This document shows positions 6,704 to 14,902 of a DNA stretch of 32,000 bases, piece by piece. Location of the stretch: NCBI GenBank assembly GCA_000170815.1, contig ABCO01000002.1:292810-324809 (forward strand), in the 5' to 3' direction. The DNA comes from an unidentified eubacterium SCB49. GTDB lineage: Bacteria; Bacteroidota; Bacteroidia; Flavobacteriales; Flavobacteriaceae. Each line of letters starts with the position of its first letter. Position 1 is the stretch's first letter. Under the pieces are notes generated by a model. That model ran no database searches and was not told the DNA's origin. It worked only from the letters and a program-made list of their open reading frames with translations. The position numbers and the translations under genes are program-made.

Positions 6704-6897
6704 GCCAACAACGTATAAAAACAATAGGGCAATGAGTGTTTAACCCAATGGCAATGGTACATTTGCGAAGTCGCCAAATTTTTAAATTTGGCTTATTAAG
6801 AAAGAAGATAATAATAAAAAATAAAAATTAGGCTTGTGTTCAACCGAATAGTTTACGCTCTTTTTCAGCCCTACTATTCTTATACACAACCGTTAAC
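6704..6897 (+). repeat. T2-family attC-like repeat, copy D (long form)
   Basis: GCCAAC(6704-6709)..GTATAAA ... TACATTTG ... palindrome gccaaattt-tt-aaatttggc ... GGCTTGTGTTCAACC ... CTTATACA..GTTAAC(6892-6897). Confidence 0.7.
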
Positions 6898-6914
6898 CTT
6901 AATTAAACATTCTT

Positions 6915-7301
6915 ATGAATAAAATATTCACATTAGTATTTGCCTTTTTAGGTTTTACTTGTATTGCTCAAAATTGTAATAACGTAAAAACAGGAACATA
7001 TGTAATTAAAAATGAAGACTATGGTGGCTCACAGTTAATTCGTACAGAATCTTCCCAAGAAGAAATAGTTGAAAAACTAGGAATACATAGTAAATTTGAT
7101 TTAATATGGATAGATGAGTGCAACTATGTTCTTTTTAATAAAAGTGTCATAAAAAAAGGAAACTATGATTTTCCAGAATCTAAAAAGACTGACTCACTAT
7201 TTATTGAGATAACTGATATAATTTCAAATGGATATAAGTTTCGAGCTAGGTCTAATTTTTCGGATTTTGTAACCACCGGAATTGCCGAAAACAAAAGTTA
7301 G
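6915..7301 (+). CDS. Hypothetical secreted protein
   Basis: 128 aa with signal peptide MNKIFTLVFAFLGFTCIAQ. Confidence 0.7.
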   Translation: MNKIFTLVFAFLGFTCIAQNCNNVKTGTYVIKNEDYGGSQLIRTESSQEEIVEKLGIHSKFDLIWIDECNYVLFNKSVIKKGNYDFPESKKTDSLFIEITDIISNGYKFRARSNFSDFVTTGIAENKS

Positions 7302-7340
7302 TTGCTCGTTTGCAAGTTCGACAAGTTTATACATTTGGTT
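7298..7340 (+). repeat. Degenerate T2-like remnant (AGTTGCT ... TACATTTGG module only), overlapping the stop codon of the preceding ORF
   Basis: ttagttgct (7298-7306), a TTTG at 7309-7312, a 17-nt spacer, then TACATTTG at 7330-7337. This resembles the promoter-like 5' module of T2 copies. No clear R'/L' boxes follow. Confidence 0.35.
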
Positions 7341-7501
7341 TTTAGAACAAAAAAGATAAAGCATAATAAACGATTCGTCTAAGTATTAATCTAAATCTAA
7401 CTTCCGTACTAAACTAAGCCTTTACTTTGTATACATTTTTCCAAACCGCAAAATTGAAGTTACCTCAAAGACATATCAAGAAAATAAAATGGACGACTCG
7501 A

Positions 7502-7789
7502 ATGGCGGTTGCAAGTTTAACTATTTTAATTTTTACTCTTTTAGTAAATGAATTTAGAGAACCATTACTCGGAATAAAAAAAGGTTATGCACCACATAAT
7601 TTTAGTTTTAACATTATGTTTTTTCTTCCATCAATGTTAGCTGCTGTAGGCTTTGGATTTGCTGTAATTGGACGAACAATAAAGCACTGGAAAACTTGGA
7701 CTGATTTAAATAAAAAATGGACATTGATCATATTGTCAATCCCTGCAATCGGATATTGGACTTTTATTTTAATCAGAATATTTATATGA
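7502..7789 (+). CDS. Small hypothetical membrane protein (3 TM); an alternative TTG start at 7427 is possible
   Basis: The ORF is open from 7427 (TTG) and the first ATG is at 7502 (MAVASLTILIFTLL...). Three hydrophobic segments. Confidence 0.5.
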   Translation: MAVASLTILIFTLLVNEFREPLLGIKKGYAPHNFSFNIMFFLPSMLAAVGFGFAVIGRTIKHWKTWTDLNKKWTLIILSIPAIGYWTFILIRIFI

Positions 7790-7890
7790 ATCAAAAGTAA
7801 CCTATTGTTATGATGATATGGACATCAATTTAAGAATAGAAATATAGGCGCGATAGGGTTTGTGTTTTTAATGATATTCAGAATAAAACG

Positions 7891-8027
7891 TGTAACATCA
7901 CCTAATATAATTCATTGCTAGGTTCTCCACCACTCACAAATCCTGATAGCTATCGGGATTCTTAGATTTTCCATTCGGTTTTTATTTGCTAAATTAGTTG
8001 CTTAACCTTACAAAAACACCTTGTAAC
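7891..8027 (+). repeat. T1-family attC-like repeat, copy e (with palindrome insertion, diverged 3' boxes)
   Basis: TGTAAC(7891-7896)..ATATAAT ... atcctgatagctatcgggat (7940-7959) ... ctaaattagttgcttaacc ... the 3' end has diverged (ACAAAAACACCTTGTAAC). Confidence 0.6.
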
Positions 8028-8042
8028 ACATTAGTCAATACT

Positions 8043-8543
8043 ATGGGCATCTTCGATTTATTCAAGAAAAAAATAGAACCAAAGATTGCAGAAAAGCAAA
8101 TTGTGGAAAAAGAACCGTATGAGAAAATTATGGAAATTGATGAACGCCTTAACAAAATTTCAGATTACGGAAATAATTTATCTACATTGAATACCTCTCA
8201 ACAAGTCGTTTTAATTATTGAAAATCTTGAGCGCGAAATAAACAATGGAGGGTTTAATCTGTTTTATTCAAATTCAAGTGGTAATCACGCACACATAACT
8301 GTTGAGTATCTAAAAAAAATAGGAGCTGATAAAACAGCTGAATTAGTTGAAAAAGCAAATCTCGAATGGCCAAATAATAATGTGCCAAAAGATAGAACTG
8401 AAAGACAAGCGATACTTAAAAAAATAGAACATAAAGCTGATCAAGTTTGGGAAGACTGCGGCCAACTTTTTTATAAATATGAAGACGATATTCCATATTT
8501 ATTAATGAAGTTTGTAAACGCAAACCGAACAGACTTTGAGTAA
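8043..8543 (+). CDS. DMP19/DUF4375-like protein
   Basis: The ATG at 8043 gives MGIFDLFKKK.... The motif EINNGGFNLFYSNSSGNHA...YLKKIGADKTAELVEKA resembles the DMP19 C-terminal (DUF4375) family. The track start at 7998 lies in repeat T1-e. Confidence 0.55.
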   Translation: MGIFDLFKKKIEPKIAEKQIVEKEPYEKIMEIDERLNKISDYGNNLSTLNTSQQVVLIIENLEREINNGGFNLFYSNSSGNHAHITVEYLKKIGADKTAELVEKANLEWPNNNVPKDRTERQAILKKIEHKADQVWEDCGQLFYKYEDDIPYLLMKFVNANRTDFE

Positions 8544-8721
8544 ATAAACATTTTATAAAAACGCATTTAAGCAATGCAGGAGTTTGTACGTCATTAAAAG
8601 TTCGGCTATATTTGAAAGACCGCCTAATTTTCACAATTTCAAATTATTACCAAAAAATTAATCGGAATTTGTAAAAATCAGCTCGTGCTCAACCACACTA
8701 CTCATATACAAGATCGTTGTG
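8544..8721 (+). repeat. T2-family attC-like repeat, copy E (long form, degenerate 5' boxes)
   Basis: It has the same internal order as copies A, B and D: GAGTTTG..TATATTTGAAAGACCGCC..AATTT modules..AGCTCGTGCTCAACC..CATATACA..GTTGTG(8716-8721). Confidence 0.6.
8583..8614 (+). promoter_or_regulatory. Candidate Bacteroidetes sigma-A promoter embedded in repeat T2-E (-33 TTTG, 20-nt spacer, -7 TATATTTG)
   Basis: TTTG at 8583-8586 and TATATTTG at 8607-8614. Both consensus elements match perfectly and the spacing falls within the 19-21 nt reported for Bacteroidetes promoters. Confidence 0.45.
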
Positions 8722-8744
8722 TTTAATTTAACAATCAAGAAAAT

Positions 8745-10304
8745 TTGATTTTCATATTTATAATATTAGCCTTTATAATCGGATATTTCGTGATTAAATA
8801 TTGGGTTAAACTAATTAATTTCATTTTTAAGCCAATAGAAAAGGCTCTCTCAGAAAATCCAGAAAAAATTAAATCAAGACAAACAGAAATAGAAAAACAA
8901 GATTTTCATAACAATAATCCAAACAAATTTGATTTAATTGATTATCCAAAAGAAGACAGAAATAAATCTTTTTATTTTCACGAATACAATAAACCAAATG
9001 GTGAATGGATTGAAATTGATGAGCCAATTTGTAAAATCCGCATCGGAGAAATGAGTGGATTTATATTTAAATCAGCAAGTGTTATAGCTTCCAATTCTGG
9101 AATTTTAGAACACACTTTGACAAAAGGAGATTTGATTTCAAATGGTACTATTTTTTACAAACTTCATCAAAAAGGAGAATACAAGAATGAAAATTCAATA
9201 GAAAACTCTGAATTTAAAGTATATTTCAAAGGCCCAGATACTAAACACTCTTTTGAAAAATGGTTAATTGAAGATGGTTCCTTTGTAAAAGCTGGAGACC
9301 CAATCTTTCAATTCAAAGACTCTAAATATCGAAAACATATAAATCATTCAAAAAAGGCTGGCTTTATTCACCAAAACAATCCTAGAAAAGTTGGTCGTTT
9401 GAATGATAACGAATTAATGTACATTATTAGAGATAAAGATGAAGAAAGAATAAACGAACGCTTCATAAACAAACCTAACATTATTAAAGACGAGTTTAAT
9501 AATTCAACTATTATCAAATGGGAAAAAGTAAGTTCAAGATTTAAAATAAGTGAAGGAATTAAAACAAAATCCGACAATTTAATCACAGATTTTCTCTTCA
9601 GTTTTAACTTTATAAATAATAATGACCAAATTGTATTTCACTTTGATCCAAAACAAATAAAACCAAAACAATACGATAAAGTATTTTTCTTATTTGAAGA
9701 TGGTGAACAAATTCAGTTTGAACTAACTGAAAATCCAGTTTCATCAAAAAACCGTTTAAACGAAAAAATTTTAGAATATAAAGGTTTAATAACTAAAACG
9801 GAACTTGAATTATTTGCTAATTCTAACTTCAAAAAGTGGAAAATATCGTTGTTAAGTGATAAAAGAGAAATTTTAGGAGGAGATATTGGAGGAGATGACT
9901 TTTATCTAACACAAAACAATATTCAAATTGTAATCAAAAAATTTGTGTCAGAATATATTGATTTGGTTAATAATACAATCCCATACTATGAACCAACTGT
10001 ATTAAAACAAGTTAGACCCGAAAAAGAAACTACAACAGATTTTTGCTTTGTTTATCTAATGCACGATACGAGCAATGATTATTATAAAATTGGAATTTCA
10101 AATAGTCCAGAATACAGAGAAAGAACTTTACAAAGTGAAAAACCTACAATTGAAATGATTGCTTCAAAGAAATTCCCAATCAGAAAAATTGCTGAAAGTA
10201 TTGAAAAGACTTTGCACAGTGCTTATTCTGAGAAAAGACTAAGAGGAGAATGGTTTGAATTAAACGACAATGATATCGAACATATTAAAGAAACACTAAA
10301 ATAA
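8745..10304 (+). CDS. Large fusion protein: N-terminal TM helix, two lipoyl/biotinyl-like barrel-sandwich motifs, an unknown middle region and a C-terminal T5orf172/MUG113 (GIY-YIG superfamily) domain
   Basis: TTG start at 8745, with no in-frame ATG for ~100 codons. The C-terminus FVYLMHDTSNDYYKIGISNSPEYRERTLQSE...LRGEWFELNDNDIEHIKE matches the T5orf172 pattern (hYhh...hhKIG.s..P..R...L...GEWF.h). WLIEDGSFVKAGDPIFQFKD is lipoyl-domain-like. Confidence 0.65.
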   Translation: MIFIFIILAFIIGYFVIKYWVKLINFIFKPIEKALSENPEKIKSRQTEIEKQDFHNNNPNKFDLIDYPKEDRNKSFYFHEYNKPNGEWIEIDEPICKIRIGEMSGFIFKSASVIASNSGILEHTLTKGDLISNGTIFYKLHQKGEYKNENSIENSEFKVYFKGPDTKHSFEKWLIEDGSFVKAGDPIFQFKDSKYRKHINHSKKAGFIHQNNPRKVGRLNDNELMYIIRDKDEERINERFINKPNIIKDEFNNSTIIKWEKVSSRFKISEGIKTKSDNLITDFLFSFNFINNNDQIVFHFDPKQIKPKQYDKVFFLFEDGEQIQFELTENPVSSKNRLNEKILEYKGLITKTELELFANSNFKKWKISLLSDKREILGGDIGGDDFYLTQNNIQIVIKKFVSEYIDLVNNTIPYYEPTVLKQVRPEKETTTDFCFVYLMHDTSNDYYKIGISNSPEYRERTLQSEKPTIEMIASKKFPIRKIAESIEKTLHSAYSEKRLRGEWFELNDNDIEHIKETLK

Positions 10305-10312
10305 AAAATAAG

Positions 10313-10441
10313 CTCAACAATGATTATAAGTAATTGCTCGCTCTCGCCTACTTCTGTAAATCTGTTAGGATTTTTAGTTTGGCGTGTACTTACAAAGTTG
10401 ACCACTATCCTACGCAACTACTCATACACAAAATCTTTGGC
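10313..10441 (+). repeat. T1-family attC-like repeat, copy f (diverged)
   Basis: CTCAAC(10313-10318)..GATTATAAGTAATTGCTCGCTCTCGCCTAC ... central stem aaatc-N6-gattt (10358-10373) ... side stem gttg-N14-caac ... CATACAC..TTTGGC(10436-10441). Confidence 0.6.
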
Positions 10442-10465
10442 AGTAATTCGTAACACTAAAAAAGT

Positions 10466-10930
10466 ATGATCATTAAATCTGAAAGTAGAAAAAGTATTAA
10501 AATTGCTTTTGTTGTAATTTCAGCATTTATATTTTTTATTCTATGGCTAGTTAAGGATAATTCATTTTACATCTTTTTAACGGGCATTTTCGGATTTATA
10601 TCATTATTAGAATACGTTGCATACGGACAAACCATACTTGAACTGACAGCTACTGAGTTAAAAGTGCAACGGAAAGTAATGTTGAATATTATTAGTGAAG
10701 ATTTTACAATTGAATTAAAAAACATACAATCGTCTTTTTATGACAAAAAAACATACGATTCGTGGGAACTCTACCAAAGATTGGCTTGGGAGTTACTCTT
10801 CCCTGGTGGACAAAGTCATTTAGTGATACATAAACTTGATGGAAAAAAACACAAGATTATTTTTAATGGAAATGAAACTGAATTATTAAATTTACAGAAA
10901 GAGCTACCAAAAAGAATACCTAATTATTAA
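10466..10930 (+). CDS. Hypothetical membrane protein (2 TM plus a PH-like C-terminal domain), first gene of a two-gene cassette
   Basis: 154 aa with two adjacent TM helices followed by a soluble domain. It lies 8 nt upstream of the bPH-domain gene with no repeat between them. Confidence 0.6.
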   Translation: MIIKSESRKSIKIAFVVISAFIFFILWLVKDNSFYIFLTGIFGFISLLEYVAYGQTILELTATELKVQRKVMLNIISEDFTIELKNIQSSFYDKKTYDSWELYQRLAWELLFPGGQSHLVIHKLDGKKHKIIFNGNETELLNLQKELPKRIPNY

Positions 10931-10938
10931 AAAAACGA

Positions 10939-11487
10939 ATGAAGGGTAACATACAGTCAGATTTAAGACAACATTTAGGCAACAATGAAACTTTGCTTTG
11001 GACAGGGCAACCCAAAAAAGGAATCGTGTTTAGAACAGCCGATATATTTCTAATACCTTTCAGTATTCTTTGGTGTGGATTTGCCATTTTTTGGGTAATT
11101 GGAGCCTCTCAAGCTGGAGGAATATTTGGATTATTTGGTATTCCATTTGTAATTATCGGATTGATATTTGTATTTGGTAGGTTTATAATTGATTCAAAGC
11201 AACGTGAAAACACATTGTACGGATTAACTGAAGACAGAATAATTATAAAAAGCGGAATATTTTCTAAAAACGTAAAATCGTTAAACATTAGAACTTTATC
11301 TGATATTGAATTCAACGAAAAAAAAGACGGAATTGGAACTATTTCAATTGGACCAAAAAATCCAATGATGATTTGGGGAAATGGAATGAATTGGTGGCCA
11401 GGAATGAAGGCTAATCCGCAACTTGATTTAATACCAGACGCTAGAAAGGTTTATAATCAAATCATTGAAATTCAGAAAAAAAGTTAA
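10939..11487 (+). CDS. Bacterial PH-domain (bPH_2/YdbS-YdbT-like) membrane protein
   Basis: ETLLWTGQPKKG...two TM helices...YGLTEDRIIIKSGIFSKNVKSLNIRTLSDIE is the typical bPH_2 (DUF304) architecture. Confidence 0.7.
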   Translation: MKGNIQSDLRQHLGNNETLLWTGQPKKGIVFRTADIFLIPFSILWCGFAIFWVIGASQAGGIFGLFGIPFVIIGLIFVFGRFIIDSKQRENTLYGLTEDRIIIKSGIFSKNVKSLNIRTLSDIEFNEKKDGIGTISIGPKNPMMIWGNGMNWWPGMKANPQLDLIPDARKVYNQIIEIQKKS

Positions 11488-11492
11488 CAAGT

Positions 11493-11582
11493 AGTAACCA
11501 TATATATCATTAATAGCTAGCTTTAGTCGCTTATAGCAACACAACCTCATCACATTATAAATAGAAGCCTTACGAGCAAGCT
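11493..11582 (+). repeat. T1-like repeat, copy g (short and degenerate; central part missing)
   Basis: AGTAAC..ATATATATCATTAATAGCTAGC aligns with T1 5' ends. The 3' part TCATCACATTATAAA...CAAGCT resembles the L'/R'/CAAGCTT end. Confidence 0.4.
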
Positions 11583-11607
11583 AAACAAATGTCACGCTGA
11601 AAGATAA

Positions 11608-12132
11608 ATGGATAAAACATATTACGCTGAAAAAGCACTTTATATTGGAGCTACTGGGATTATATGTGCTTTTTGTTTTTTTGCACCAACCCTCTTCACA
11701 TTTAAAAGTTCATTAATTAAACAGAGCGGAACTGTTGAAAATTTAAAAACTGACTATATTCAAGTAGAGAGTTCAAGAGGTTCAAAAAGTATTAAATCTG
11801 AACTAAAATTTACTCTTAATTCAACTCAAAGTATTTATGTTCTAATGAAGAATATTGAACAAAGTAGGTTCAACGAAAGATTTGAAGATTTAGAGAAACA
11901 ATTAAGAAATTCTGAAAGAGCAACAGTCTGGATAAAGGAAAGCCAAAAAGAAGAATATAAACCAACTGTTTTTCAAATAGCTGACAGTAGCGGAAAGATC
12001 ATTTATGATTTTGAAGAAGCTAAAAATCATTCCAGATTCGGGTTTTTAGTTTCTTTTGCCTTAGGCATTTTTACAATCGGAATTTGGTTGAGACATAAAT
12101 ACTGGAAAAAGCCAGCTCACAACAATCCATAA
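11608..12132 (+). CDS. Hypothetical membrane protein (N- and C-terminal TM helices)
   Basis: 174-aa ORF with an ATG start and hydrophobic segments at both ends. Confidence 0.6.
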   Translation: MDKTYYAEKALYIGATGIICAFCFFAPTLFTFKSSLIKQSGTVENLKTDYIQVESSRGSKSIKSELKFTLNSTQSIYVLMKNIEQSRFNERFEDLEKQLRNSERATVWIKESQKEEYKPTVFQIADSSGKIIYDFEEAKNHSRFGFLVSFALGIFTIGIWLRHKYWKKPAHNNP

Positions 12133-12133
12133 A

Positions 12134-12298
12134 TTTAACAATTAGGCTGTTGTTTAACCTAAATATAATCTACACATTAAGAGCCATCTACATATTCATA
12201 AGTAGAAAAACAAATAACCAGGCAACCTTTTCATAAATATTCACGTCTATTAAGATAAGGGATAAATCATCATTTATTCTCAAACGCATACCATTGAT
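12134..12298 (+). repeat. Strongly degenerate T2-like intergenic element
   Basis: TTTAAC..AGGCTGTTGTTTAACC resembles the T2 5' part (GGGCAGTTGCTTAA / GAGTGTTTAACCC). The 3' CGCATACC-ATTGAT is a weak L'/R' analogue. Confidence 0.3.
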
Positions 12299-12321
12299 AA
12301 ATTCAAACAAAAAATGTGATT

Positions 12322-13527
12322 ATGAAATTAACCAAACTACTATGCTCTCTTATTGTACTTACTTTATTAAACAGTTGTGCATCTTCAAAAATAAATAAAA
12401 CCTTAAAGCAAGGAAGTATCGTTCAAGAAGACTTTAAAACGACTATCCCATTTGAATACCGTCATGGACTTATTATCCTTAAAGTAACTATTGAAAATGA
12501 AATATATGACTTTATTTTAGACACTGGAGCTTCTAATGCACTTTCAAAAGAATTAGCAGAGAAACTTAACGTTACGTCTTTAGGTAGCGAAAATATAACT
12601 GATGTTCACAAAACTAGTCAACAACTTAACTATACAAAAATAGACGATATTGAAATAGGAGGTATTCATTTTAAGAATACTATTGCAGCTATATCAGATT
12701 TTAATAGTGGAGAACTTGCCTGTTTAAATGTTGATGGTTTTATTGGTTCTAATTTAATGCGATTTGCGGTATGGGATTTCGATTTTAAAAATCAGATAAT
12801 TACCATAACAGATGATGAACAAAAATTAAATATTCCAACAGACGCTATAGAATCAAAAATGTTTATTGGTACAGCAGCTAGTCAACCATCTATTATTAGC
12901 TATATAAATGGTGATAAGGCATTAAATAATATGATTGATTTAGGAAACAATTCTACACCACATTTATCGTATTTAGATTTTGTAAAACAAAAAGAATCTA
13001 ATAAAATCACGAAGTATATATTAGGTTCTGGATATTCTACTATTGGTATGTATGGAAAGGGGAAAAAGAGAGACGAGATATCTGCTAAAGTAGACGAGAT
13101 AAAAATAGGTGATCATATTATAAAAAATAAAGTGATGAGGGTGAAAGATGGTAAAACAAACCTCGGAATTTCATTTTTTAAAAATTATAGATTAATTTTA
13201 AACTGGGAAGCACGAAAGGTGAAAATGATTCAAGAAGGTGATACTAATAATACAACATTAAATCATTTTGGGTTTATACCTAGTTTTAATGGAAATAAAG
13301 TAGTTGTAGATTTTATATATAATGATACTGCTGCATCAAAAGTGTTACAATTTGGAGATCAAGTATTACAGATTAATACTATTGATTTTACAAACATTAC
13401 TGATAACAATAAATGTGATTTTTTTGACAATGGTATTATACCAAAAGAAGTTGATGAAATAACCATTAAAATATTACGTAATGGTGAAACATTAGAATTT
13501 CAGCTAAAAAAAACGTTGTTACTTTAA
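12322..13527 (+). CDS. Lipoprotein with a retropepsin-like aspartyl protease domain and a C-terminal PDZ-like domain
   Basis: The ATG at 12322 gives MKLTKLLCSLIVLTLLNSCASS (lipobox). FILDTGASNALS is the D-T/S-G-A aspartic protease motif, and LQFGDQVLQINTIDF is PDZ-like. Confidence 0.7.
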   Translation: MKLTKLLCSLIVLTLLNSCASSKINKTLKQGSIVQEDFKTTIPFEYRHGLIILKVTIENEIYDFILDTGASNALSKELAEKLNVTSLGSENITDVHKTSQQLNYTKIDDIEIGGIHFKNTIAAISDFNSGELACLNVDGFIGSNLMRFAVWDFDFKNQIITITDDEQKLNIPTDAIESKMFIGTAASQPSIISYINGDKALNNMIDLGNNSTPHLSYLDFVKQKESNKITKYILGSGYSTIGMYGKGKKRDEISAKVDEIKIGDHIIKNKVMRVKDGKTNLGISFFKNYRLILNWEARKVKMIQEGDTNNTTLNHFGFIPSFNGNKVVVDFIYNDTAASKVLQFGDQVLQINTIDFTNITDNNKCDFFDNGIIPKEVDEITIKILRNGETLEFQLKKTLLL

Positions 13528-13570
13528 ACAAAACGAACTTAAGAAAAGAGTAGAAAACCAAAAGCTCGCA

Positions 13571-13737
13571 CACAACATTGTATATAAAAAAAATAGCGTT
13601 AGTCTTTGCTAATACCTTAATCTGGGAACATCTGGAGAGTTGCTAAATTTTAAAATTTGGCTCAGTGTTCCATCCCAAAAGAAACCGCTAATTTTTAGCG
13701 CTACTTTTTATATACAAATCCGTGATACATTTGAAAA
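13571..13737 (+). repeat. T2-family attC-like repeat, copy F (last element of the array)
   Basis: CACAAC(13571-13576)..GTATATA ... GAGTTGCTAAATTTTAAAATTTGGCTCAGTGTTCC ... hairpin cgctaa-ttt-ttagcg ... GCTACTTTTTATATACA..GTGATA(13732-13737). The 3' 50 nt are close to copy C. Confidence 0.65.
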
Positions 13738-13753
13738 AAATATGAGTTACTCT

Positions 13754-14902
13754 TTATTCAATTAAATGTCGAGGTAAATCTCTTACTCTTTCACAGCACA
13801 ATTGTTCCATTACTTGCTGAAATTCTCGTTTCATTAAAGAAATAGTATGATTACCCCCTTCTTTTCCTAAAGCACCAACACCATACATAAAACTACGGCC
13901 CATAAAAGTAAATTCGGCTCCATTTGCCATAGCTCTCGCGATATCTGGACCGCCACGTAAACCTGAGTCTACCATAATTTTAATTTGATCACCGTACTTC
14001 TTAGCGAGGTGAGTCATAGGCACAATAGAAGATTGACCAGCATCCAGCTGTCTTCCTCCATGATTAGATACAATTAATCCATCCACCCCTAAGTTGATTG
14101 CTTTTTGAGCATCCATTTCGTTTACAATACCTTTTATCACTAATTTCCCTTTCCATTGGTCTCTTATTGACGCGATCCTGTCTTCATTCAGTCGCCCAGA
14201 AAAAGTAGCGTCCATAAATTCGCCTAATTTTTTTAAATTTAAACCTTTAGGCATATATTTCTCCATTGTTTTAAAAGAAGGTTGTCCATGAATTAATGTT
14301 TGAATTGCCCAATCTGGTTTACTAAACACTTCAATAATATTTTTTAAACTCATAGAAGGCGGCATAGCTAAACCATTTCTAACATCTCTAGGTCTGTATC
14401 CAAAAGTTGGCACATCTGCTAAAATTACTAAAACATCTGTTCCTGCTTGTGCTGCTCTATCTAACAAATCTCTTTTTACTTTTTCTTCTGCCGGATGATA
14501 TAATTGAAACCAAGATTGTCCTTCTGTTATTTCTGCTACACGCTCGATACTAGAAGTAGTAACGGTACTTAAAATAAAAGGAACATTATGTTTAAAAGCT
14601 GCTTTTGCCAATATTTCTGGTGAGTTTGGCCACATTAAGCCCTGAAGTCCAACGGGAGCAATACCAAAAGGTGCCGCATAGGTATGACCAAACAATTCTG
14701 CTTCTAAATTAGAGGTGTCAAATTTTGATAAATATTGTGGCATTAATTCTATCTTCTGAAGATCAGTACGATTTTTATCTAAATTGATATCTTCATTACA
14801 ACCACCATCTAAATACTCAAAAGCGAACTTTGGCATTTTAACCATTGCTCTTTTTCTTAAATCAGTTACAGAAGGATATTTGGGGTTAATTTTTATTTCC
14901 AT
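13754..14902 (-). CDS. lldD: FMN-dependent alpha-hydroxy-acid dehydrogenase (L-lactate dehydrogenase-like)
   Basis: 382 aa with FEYLDGG..., WFQLY, VSNHGGRQLD and DSGLRGG motifs, typical of the LldD/glycolate oxidase family. Confidence 0.85.
   Translation of the reverse strand: MEIKINPKYPSVTDLRKRAMVKMPKFAFEYLDGGCNEDINLDKNRTDLQKIELMPQYLSKFDTSNLEAELFGHTYAAPFGIAPVGLQGLMWPNSPEILAKAAFKHNVPFILSTVTTSSIERVAEITEGQSWFQLYHPAEEKVKRDLLDRAAQAGTDVLVILADVPTFGYRPRDVRNGLAMPPSMSLKNIIEVFSKPDWAIQTLIHGQPSFKTMEKYMPKGLNLKKLGEFMDATFSGRLNEDRIASIRDQWKGKLVIKGIVNEMDAQKAINLGVDGLIVSNHGGRQLDAGQSSIVPMTHLAKKYGDQIKIMVDSGLRGGPDIARAMANGAEFTFMGRSFMYGVGALGKEGGNHTISLMKREFQQVMEQLCCERVRDLPRHLIE

Follow-up and report, generated by a model that had tools for sequence, protein, structure and literature searches.

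Promoter-like boxes in a long class of attC-like site in a Flavobacteriaceae cassette array

When small genes follow one another in a single direction and are separated by repeats that resemble promoters, does each gene bring its own start of transcription? The question is raised by a 32,000-nucleotide (nt) stretch of the genome of the unidentified eubacterium SCB49 (Flavobacteriaceae; contig ABCO01000002.1, positions 292,810–324,809; hereafter the window), of which positions 1–13740 form an array of small open reading frames (ORFs), all oriented alike and spaced by two classes of repeat, T1 and T2. A preliminary description of the window had proposed that T2 combines a T1-like site with a promoter and leader module whose −33 and −7 boxes match the Bacteroidota sigma-A consensus, so that cassettes behind T2 would be transcribed independently and those behind T1 would depend on read-through. 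The motifs and coordinates it gave for T2 copies B, C, D and E and for a T2 remnant were all found to be correct on re-reading the window. The account that we consider on balance probable is nevertheless a different one: T2 would be a long class of attC-like site in a cassette system with a Xer-type recombinase, its promoter-like box would not be kept as a sigma-A promoter across the family, and in one subtype (beta) the full consensus may transcribe the next cassette. Coordinates without a prefix refer to the window, and those with a prefix (C4, C11, etc.) to numbered contigs of the same genome.

T1 and T2 are alike at their ends. Both start with xxCAACA-xxGTATATA and finish with CATATAC-N5-6-GTTGYY, an arrangement that reads as the R″–L″...L′–R′ grammar of integron attC sites. 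An nhmmer search of this 3.2-Mb genome found about 30 copies of T2 and about 40 of T1 over several arrays, with T2 lengths of about 105–235 nt, and a model of the T2 right arm was matched in 118 of 150 other Flavobacteriaceae genera. Neither class is Flavo-1 or another catalogued RNA, since Rfam gave no match in the window at gathering thresholds and, at E ≤ 1 over positions 1–14000, nothing except one spurious match to a long non-coding RNA.

The interior of T2 is built of paired segments. In the T2 sample, 23 copies belong to this genome and 69 to about 45 other Flavobacteriaceae genomes, and stem statistics were computed on 90; the foreign copies are the best-scoring matches to the right-arm model, and copies within one genome or between relatives are not independent. 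RNAalifold on a MAFFT alignment of T2 recovered almost nothing, and de novo helix detection in these AT-rich elements returned many spurious A/T helices; only the L, S3 and P4 stems were retained. The L″ and L′ boxes pair in 507 of 538 cells. The extended stem S3 shows covariation at seven of its eight pairs (at one of them, for example, A-T 45, T-A 30 and C-G 5) and includes an A·C mismatch conserved in 84 of the 90 copies. The central stem P4 is 17 bp long, GCCAAATTTTTAAATTT pairing with AAATTTAAAAATTYGGC, and a T2 homologue from Mangrovibacterium keeps this stem with an entirely different sequence.

Non-Watson–Crick cells point to the strand that folds. Top-strand A·C, which is G·T on the bottom strand, outnumbers top-strand G·T by 13 to 3 in the L stem, 15 to 3 in S3 and 95 to 6 in P4. 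This bias towards bottom-strand wobble pairs is the mark of a folding bottom DNA strand rather than of a plus-strand RNA leader, and as an indirect signature it indicates that the folded and recombined strand of T2 is the bottom one. Copy B gives a bottom-strand fold of −38.1 kcal/mol (z −5.8), and that of copy D is weaker (z −1.9). We take T2 to be a long attC-like hairpin site with the boxes R″–L″...L′–R′, the bottom strand being predicted to fold into a single long imperfect hairpin composed of R″/R′, L″/L′, S3 with its A·C mismatch, the 17-bp P4 and a variable loop. What had been described as a leader would then be the paired interior of a recombination site, and the idea of a T1-like site with an appended promoter and leader fails on the covarying bottom-strand stems formed by that very interior.

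Two candidate readings of conserved segments within the hairpin were rejected. The palindrome GTCGCCAAATTTTTAAATTTGGCGAC was considered as an operator downstream of a promoter and discarded on the P4 of the Mangrovibacterium homologue, in which the same stem with a different sequence makes the conservation of the palindrome structural. Pairing within the hairpin was considered as a sufficient explanation of the −7 box and dropped because thermodynamic predictions of its partner were inconsistent between copies; the best partner, CCGAAAA in the right arm, pairs at five of seven positions, without covariation and with a top-strand T·G that is unfit for a bottom-strand hairpin.

To which cassette a T2 copy belongs follows from the cassette boundary. 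Self-comparison of the arrays revealed one cassette present twice, C11:11270–12048 being identical to C24:278007–278784. The identity extends from GTTGTGCAT of the preceding R′ to ...AAACGTT of the cassette's own R′, and on its left side the cassette adjoins a T2 in C11, but in C24 an attI-like pad; a second cassette pair has the same left boundary. An identical cassette in two contexts, with its boundaries exactly at the R′ boxes, places the crossover where integrons have it, at G|TT of R′, and makes a cassette TT...ORF...attC...G. With the boundary at this point, each T2 closes the left-hand cassette at its 3′ end (copy B, for example, being the attC-like site of cassette 2222–2797), and a rightward promoter within T2 would read into the next cassette and not into its carrier. 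The suggestion that cassettes bring their own promoter in this form is thereby turned around, as T2 goes with the upstream ORF and its promoter would serve the downstream neighbour.

The window copies, all on the plus strand, differ in how closely they approach a promoter. The −33/−7 match lies in the left arm of T2, between S3 and P4, with the −7 box at what we call site 1. Copy E (8553–8721), a decayed member of the beta subtype whose R″/L″ boxes have degenerated (ATAAAAACGCATTTA) and whose right arm has lost about 25 nt, carries TTTG at 8583–8586, a 20-nt spacer (N20) and TATATTTG at 8607–8614, 131 nt upstream of the next ORF start (TTG, 8745). The beta copy B (2815–3011) has GTTG at 2846–2849, N21 and TATATTTG at 2871–2878, with the next start codon at 3024, 146 nt downstream. 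Copy D (6712–6897, gamma subtype) has TACATTTG at 6758–6765, but without a TTG 17–21 nt upstream, and a second box, TAAATTTG, at 6783–6790 within the palindrome. The remnant (7301–7337), which lies between two ORFs of a single cassette, has TTTG at 7309–7312, N17 and TACATTTG at 7330–7337, 90–153 nt before the ORF 7427/7490–7789. Copy C (5509–5612), a short form without central palindrome and right-arm repeat, has CATATTTG at 5564–5571, one mismatch away from TAnnTTTG, and copy A (1996–2213, alpha subtype; R″ GTCAAC, L″ GCATATA, L′ CATATGC, R′ GTTGCC) has CATATTTA at 2051–2058, two mismatches away. Copy F (12107–12300) is strongly degenerate and without a promoter-like box; copy G (13569–13727), a short form and the final site of the array, has AACATCTG at site 1 and GTGATA as R′. 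TAnnTTTG is thus present in B, D, E and the remnant and absent in A, C, F and G. The window as a whole is not enriched in this motif (59 matches against 55.6 ± 7.3 in shuffled sequence), and the distance from the T2 box to the next start codon is 83–164 nt, compared with the usual 0–40 nt.

The cassettes behind T1 complete the picture. As had been described, in T1 copies the L′ box CATATACAAA comes some 18 nt behind AGTTGCTTAAC, at the place that corresponds to the −7 box of T2. The part of the comparison that does not stand is the identity of the upstream motif: AGTTGCTTAAC lies in the right arm of the T1 hairpin and its counterpart is the right-arm GTGCTCAACC of T2, the supposed −33 box being a second, direct copy of the GTGCTCAACC-type motif in the T2 left arm. 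Nor do the cassettes behind T1 all look promoterless. One has TTTG, N18 and TAGATTTG at 722–751, 27 nt before the ATG at 778, and another has two adjacent −7-like boxes (TAATTTTG and TATCTTTG) at 1407–1422, 18–26 nt before the ATG at 1440, with TATCTTTG at 1415–1422, 18 nt from that start codon. Both 722–751 and 1415–1422 have normal geometry, lie in the 5′ untranslated region (UTR) of their own cassette and would be promoters of the classical cassette-borne kind (PMC8876359); boxes of their own in two cassettes preceded by T1 contradict a dependence on read-through. The second of these cassettes (1440–1990) is of toxin–antitoxin type, with an intact antitoxin-like ORF of 77 aa (1440–1673) followed by a ParE/RelE-like frame (about 1680–1990) that is broken by stops and looks like a decayed toxin gene.

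Across the T2 family the full box is not conserved. A perfect TAnnTTTG occupies site 1 in 7 of 22 T2 copies of this genome, six of these with TTG at N17–21, and in only 3 of 67 copies from the other genomes (10 of 89 overall). A full match to the sigma-A consensus is seen in B, E and the small beta subtype to which they belong, and is not a general property of the element. The commonest forms at site 1 are CATATTTG (13 copies), TATATTTA (12), TGTATTTG (8) and CGTATTTG (4), and the family consensus is GTTG-N17-CATATTTG. Over the 90 copies the information content is 0.85 bits for the T at box position 1, 0.68 for the A at position 2 and 0.71 for the G at position 8, against an element mean of 1.13 bits; these are the least conserved positions of the box, and the TTT run alone is near-invariant. 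In conservation the 8-mer ranks 63rd among about 198 windows, and the columns of the TTG are of average conservation. The palindrome holds a further TAnnTTTG (TAAATTTG) in 40 of 92 copies, which shows how readily promoter-looking boxes arise in the T-rich sequence of T2. As judged from these alignments, the promoter determinants are not conserved family-wide.

The same conclusion is approached from the promoters of this genome, for which upstream regions were compared with coding sequence on a crude, simple ORF-based gene map. The reference is the Bacteroidota sigma-A promoter, with TTG at −33 and TAnnTTTG at −7, as in the transcription-start map of F. psychrophilum, in which the median 5′ UTR is 24 nt (PMC9723704); a sigma-70-type promoter scan is not applicable to Bacteroidota promoters and was set aside. 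Upstream of genes, TAnnTTTG is enriched 4.2-fold, TAnnTTTA 2.45-fold and CAnnTTTG 1.46-fold, with TGnnTTTG at 0.49-fold, and TTG is enriched 2.4- to 6.6-fold at spacers of 18–21 nt and 1.7-fold at N17. The consensus GTTG-N17-CATATTTG is thus near background on both counts. The full motif TTG-N17-21-TAnnTTTG is itself of modest specificity, 302 of its 512 genomic matches lying in coding DNA, and of the matches upstream of genes about half end no more than 40 nt from an ATG, in agreement with the short 5′ UTRs of F. psychrophilum.

Copies B and E share with these promoters both boxes at the preferred spacing. They differ in their GC-rich flanks, which are atypical for this genome, and in a leader that would be 131–146 nt long; most other T2 copies miss the T, A or G at box positions 1, 2 and 8. 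In sequence context B and E score at the 10th–13th percentile of upstream promoter-like sites and at about the 90th percentile of coding matches, an intermediate place on a position weight matrix that was trained on upstream sites and separates mainly AT-rich intergenic from coding DNA. Most T2 copies are probably not promoters; B and E might act as such, with weak or moderate strength. A transcription start in B, E and the other beta copies is possible; that B, E or both give a detectable one we would put somewhat below an even prospect.

The machinery of this cassette system lies partly elsewhere in the genome. The only array-linked recombinase found is on another contig, which has a gene for a Xer-like recombinase of 284 aa (C23:376269–377123); behind it, on the same strand, come an attI-like pad and T1 and T2 sites as far as the end of the contig. 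Its best match is the XerA-type profile NF040815 (216 bits, cut-off 220). Against the integron-integrase profile TIGR02249 it scores 183 bits (cut-off 265), with two aligned stretches that leave out the middle of the profile, and the genome holds no TIGR02249 match above the cut-off. Homologues are widespread in Bacteroidota, often at contig ends, the closest being 57–61% identical (Polaribacter, Hyunsoonleella, Aestuariivivens and Tenacibaculum). The array to which the window belongs is 28 kb long and begins at an attI-like pad (...ACGCGTATATAAACAA|GTTG; C24:277800–278010), about 14.8 kb to the left of the window and directly behind an acyl-CoA dehydrogenase gene and its terminator; at this head there is no adjacent recombinase and no evident platform promoter (Pc).

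Outside the family, a metagenome-assembled genome of Mangrovibacterium sp. (Prolixibacteraceae, a different order) has T1- and T2-type sites (10667–10809 and 12136–12342) after a homologue of the recombinase, which points to a horizontal spread of the cassettes beyond Flavobacteriaceae.

Set beside sedentary chromosomal integrons and clusters of attC sites lacking integron-integrases (CALIN), the sites agree in their R″-L″...L′-R′ boxes, in an imperfect hairpin with conserved mismatches, in the bottom-strand signature, in the crossover at G|TT of R′ and in their place at the 3′ end of the cassette. The arrays likewise agree, with co-oriented and mostly promoterless small ORFs, toxin–antitoxin cassettes that have a promoter of their own, and a site-targeting insertion sequence. 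In contrast to integrons, the recombinase is Xer-like, scores below the cut-off for integron integrases, shows no alignment with the IntI-specific segment and is oriented as the cassettes are; R′ is GTTGYY and not GTTRRRY; and T2 is very long (about 200 nt) and retains its interior sequence in over 100 genera, unlike classical attC sites, which retain only their structure. A second comparable system is rAID-1 of gut Bacteroidales, described as having a XerD-family recombinase and integron-like intergenic repeats (Ross et al., bioRxiv 10.1101/471110). Its architecture, a Xer-type recombinase followed by co-oriented small accessory genes with repetitive intergenic sequences, is that of C23:376269–380109, and both systems are from the phylum Bacteroidota; the order (Bacteroidales, as opposed to Flavobacteriales here) and the repeats are different. 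The paper on rAID-1 mentions no promoters in the repeats (10.1101/471110).

We return to the reading of T2 as the attC-like recombination site of an integron-like Flavobacteriaceae cassette system with a Xer-like tyrosine recombinase. Recombination takes place at G|TT of R′, T2 ends the cassette to its left, and the family-wide −33/−7 pair is a near miss that would not be kept up as a sigma-A promoter. In the beta subtype, drift or selection would have led to the full consensus TTG-N20/21-TATATTTG, which may give rightward transcription into the next cassette through a structured leader of 130–150 nt. Several observations weigh against this. The TATTT core of the box is highly conserved throughout the family (1.6–1.9 bits), and bottom-strand pairing fails to account for it, the candidate partner forming a top-strand T·G and thus a bottom-strand A·C. 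With neither recombinase nor Pc at the array head, any expression of the cassettes needs internal promoters, which makes internal starts plausible a priori. TATATTTG is invariant in all eight beta copies that were aligned, from four genomes and two genera. Finally, the decayed copy E differs from its closest relative by nine changes in 57 nt, none of them in the 12 motif positions, a distribution that is not significant (p ~0.10).

Much of this concerns the beta subtype, which is marked by the S3 sequence AGCAATGCGGG/CCCGCRCTGCT and the palindrome CCGCCGAATTTTTACAAATTCG. The eight aligned copies come from this genome (four), from two congeneric genomes (three) and from another genus (one); the beta sample is BLAST-based and biased towards B-like copies, and was left out of the frequencies. 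The alternative that survives best is that beta T2 is a selected promoter-donor attC, whose outward sigma-A promoter would restart transcription downstream and so offset a distant or absent platform promoter. All eight copies keep TATATTTG together with a TTG at N20 or N21, the spacing preferred in this genome; in copy E the motif is intact though the recombination boxes have decayed, and the head of the C24 array is without an evident Pc. Set against this, the beta copies are few and closely related (77–85% identity; three genomes of one genus and one other), and the invariance of the box is within chance expectation: TATATTTG is one of only two invariant runs of at least 6 nt in the alignment, and with 51% of columns invariant about 0.7 such runs would be expected by chance, a difference that is not significant. 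The GC-rich flanks of B and E and the 131–146 nt to the next start codon count on the same side. Selection for maintenance of the beta box is doubtful in our judgement, and we hold it equally unlikely that beta sites carry a maintained outward sigma-A promoter that would make their cassette a mobile "promoter donor" for the next one downstream.

A further motif of T2 bears on the next alternative. GTGCTTAAYC(C)GAA/AGTTGCTTAAYC is found in the left and in the right arm of T2, in direct orientation (e.g. 2033–2042 and 2152–2162), and once in the right arm of T1 (e.g. 1316–1326). Direct repeats cannot pair together in a hairpin, and they may be candidate protein-binding sites. If they and TATTTG(G) were recognized by the recombinase or an accessory protein, or were unpaired bases for the choice of strand, the resemblance to a promoter would be coincidental, B and E included. 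The repeat in both T2 arms and in T1 does suit protein binding better than pairing, and the conserved TATTT core is without a convincing bottom-strand partner. On the other hand, much of the T2 interior is equally conserved and shared ancestry through horizontal spread may suffice, and RNA polymerase would bind a consensus sigma-A site regardless of any other factor at that place; we find this alternative improbable. Likewise improbable is the model of the preliminary description, in which every T2 adds a promoter and leader to a T1-like site: the TTG motif and the (T/C)ATATTTG box do recur at a fixed spacing in most T2 copies and T1 does have its L′ box at the corresponding place, but the rarity of the perfect box and the weakness of its determinant positions, the near-background signal of CAnnTTTG with N17, the paired interior, the assignment of T2 to the upstream cassette, the boxes behind T1 and the homology of the T1 motif to the right and not the left arm of T2 all speak against it.

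Two local hairpins of T2 were also recorded. In the right arm, TTCGG-N11-CCGAA (e.g. 2146–2170, 2946–2970 and 6831–6855) has a wobble bias opposite to that of the main stems, with 49 top-strand G·T against 21 A·C, which is compatible with a hairpin of the top strand or of RNA, some 60 nt upstream of the next start codon. The loop of T2 can hold an optional GC-rich hairpin (GACCCGCCTGCCGGACGGGCAGG; 2103–2121), followed on the minus strand by TTTTTTATT and found in 7 of 24 copies of this genome, which looks like a terminator for antisense transcription.

Pairs of sites with near-identical upstream ORFs and R″/L″ boxes but differing interiors were found at C23:378400–378860 versus C4:1425–1885 (beta versus alpha) and at C11:9880–10130 versus C11:4480–4790 (short versus long form). 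In both, similarity returns at L′/R′, which suggests that the segment between the L boxes is replaced as a whole, through gene conversion or modular insertion and deletion.

The shorter attC-like class, T1, is represented in the window by copy a (436–600, plus strand) and by further copies at 1217–1380, 4113–4305, 4772–4953, 7882–8034, 10302–10464 and 11487–11598. Copy a is interrupted between R″ and L″ by the end of an IS110-family element (1–453, minus strand). At least six copies of this element in the genome are inserted at the identical point between R″ and L″, in T1 as well as T2 sites (window 1–453; C11:6022–7262; C21:89235–90485; C24:285114–286354; C17:120380–121660), the element end ...AAAATGCTAACTTAAG abutting (C/A)CGTATATA. 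The element is a site-targeting insertion sequence, analogous to the IS1111-attC group, and a second element of about 1.37 kb (C24:279556–280928 and others) is likewise placed at T1 sites. At the other end of the array, T2 copy G is adjoined by a convergent housekeeping gene on the minus strand (13754–14902).

Internal starts within cassette arrays are in themselves nothing new, and the contrast that had been drawn with a single-Pc integron model loses its force, since such promoters are well documented for cmlA, qacE, qnrVC1 and toxin–antitoxin cassettes (PMC8876359); gene-less cassettes of Vibrio superintegrons have promoter activity as well (10.1101/2023.11.21.568050). They share with the present case a start within the array that is independent of Pc, and the boxes at 722–751 and 1415–1422 fit among them. 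The difference is in the beneficiary: known internal promoters lie in the 5′ UTR of their own cassette or in a gene-less cassette and serve that cassette, whereas a box in T2 would serve the neighbour. A promoter-donor attC has not been described for integrons, in which the known internal promoters are situated in their own 5′ UTR. The nearest analogue is offered by group IIC-attC introns (PMC3001079), whose outward-oriented promoters are situated at or inside an attC site and transcribe the cassette behind it. In that case an inserted intron supplies the promoter; here it would be part of the attC-like sequence, with no intron. A promoter that belongs to the attC-like sequence would add a variant to those known, and one restricted to a minor subtype.

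Large chromosomal integrons pose the question of how cassettes far from the platform promoter come to be expressed, and it matters more here because a 28-kb array has neither a recombinase nor a visible Pc at its head. Since T2 is a site of recombination rather than a promoter module, sequence grounds do not allow the array to be seen as a string of independent transcription units, and whatever an attC-like site encodes takes effect in the cassette next to it, not in the one that carries it. If the beta boxes are active, a captured cassette could wake older silent cassettes behind it, and if beta sites do act as promoter donors, expression would be set by the order of site types along the array and not by the distance from a platform promoter.

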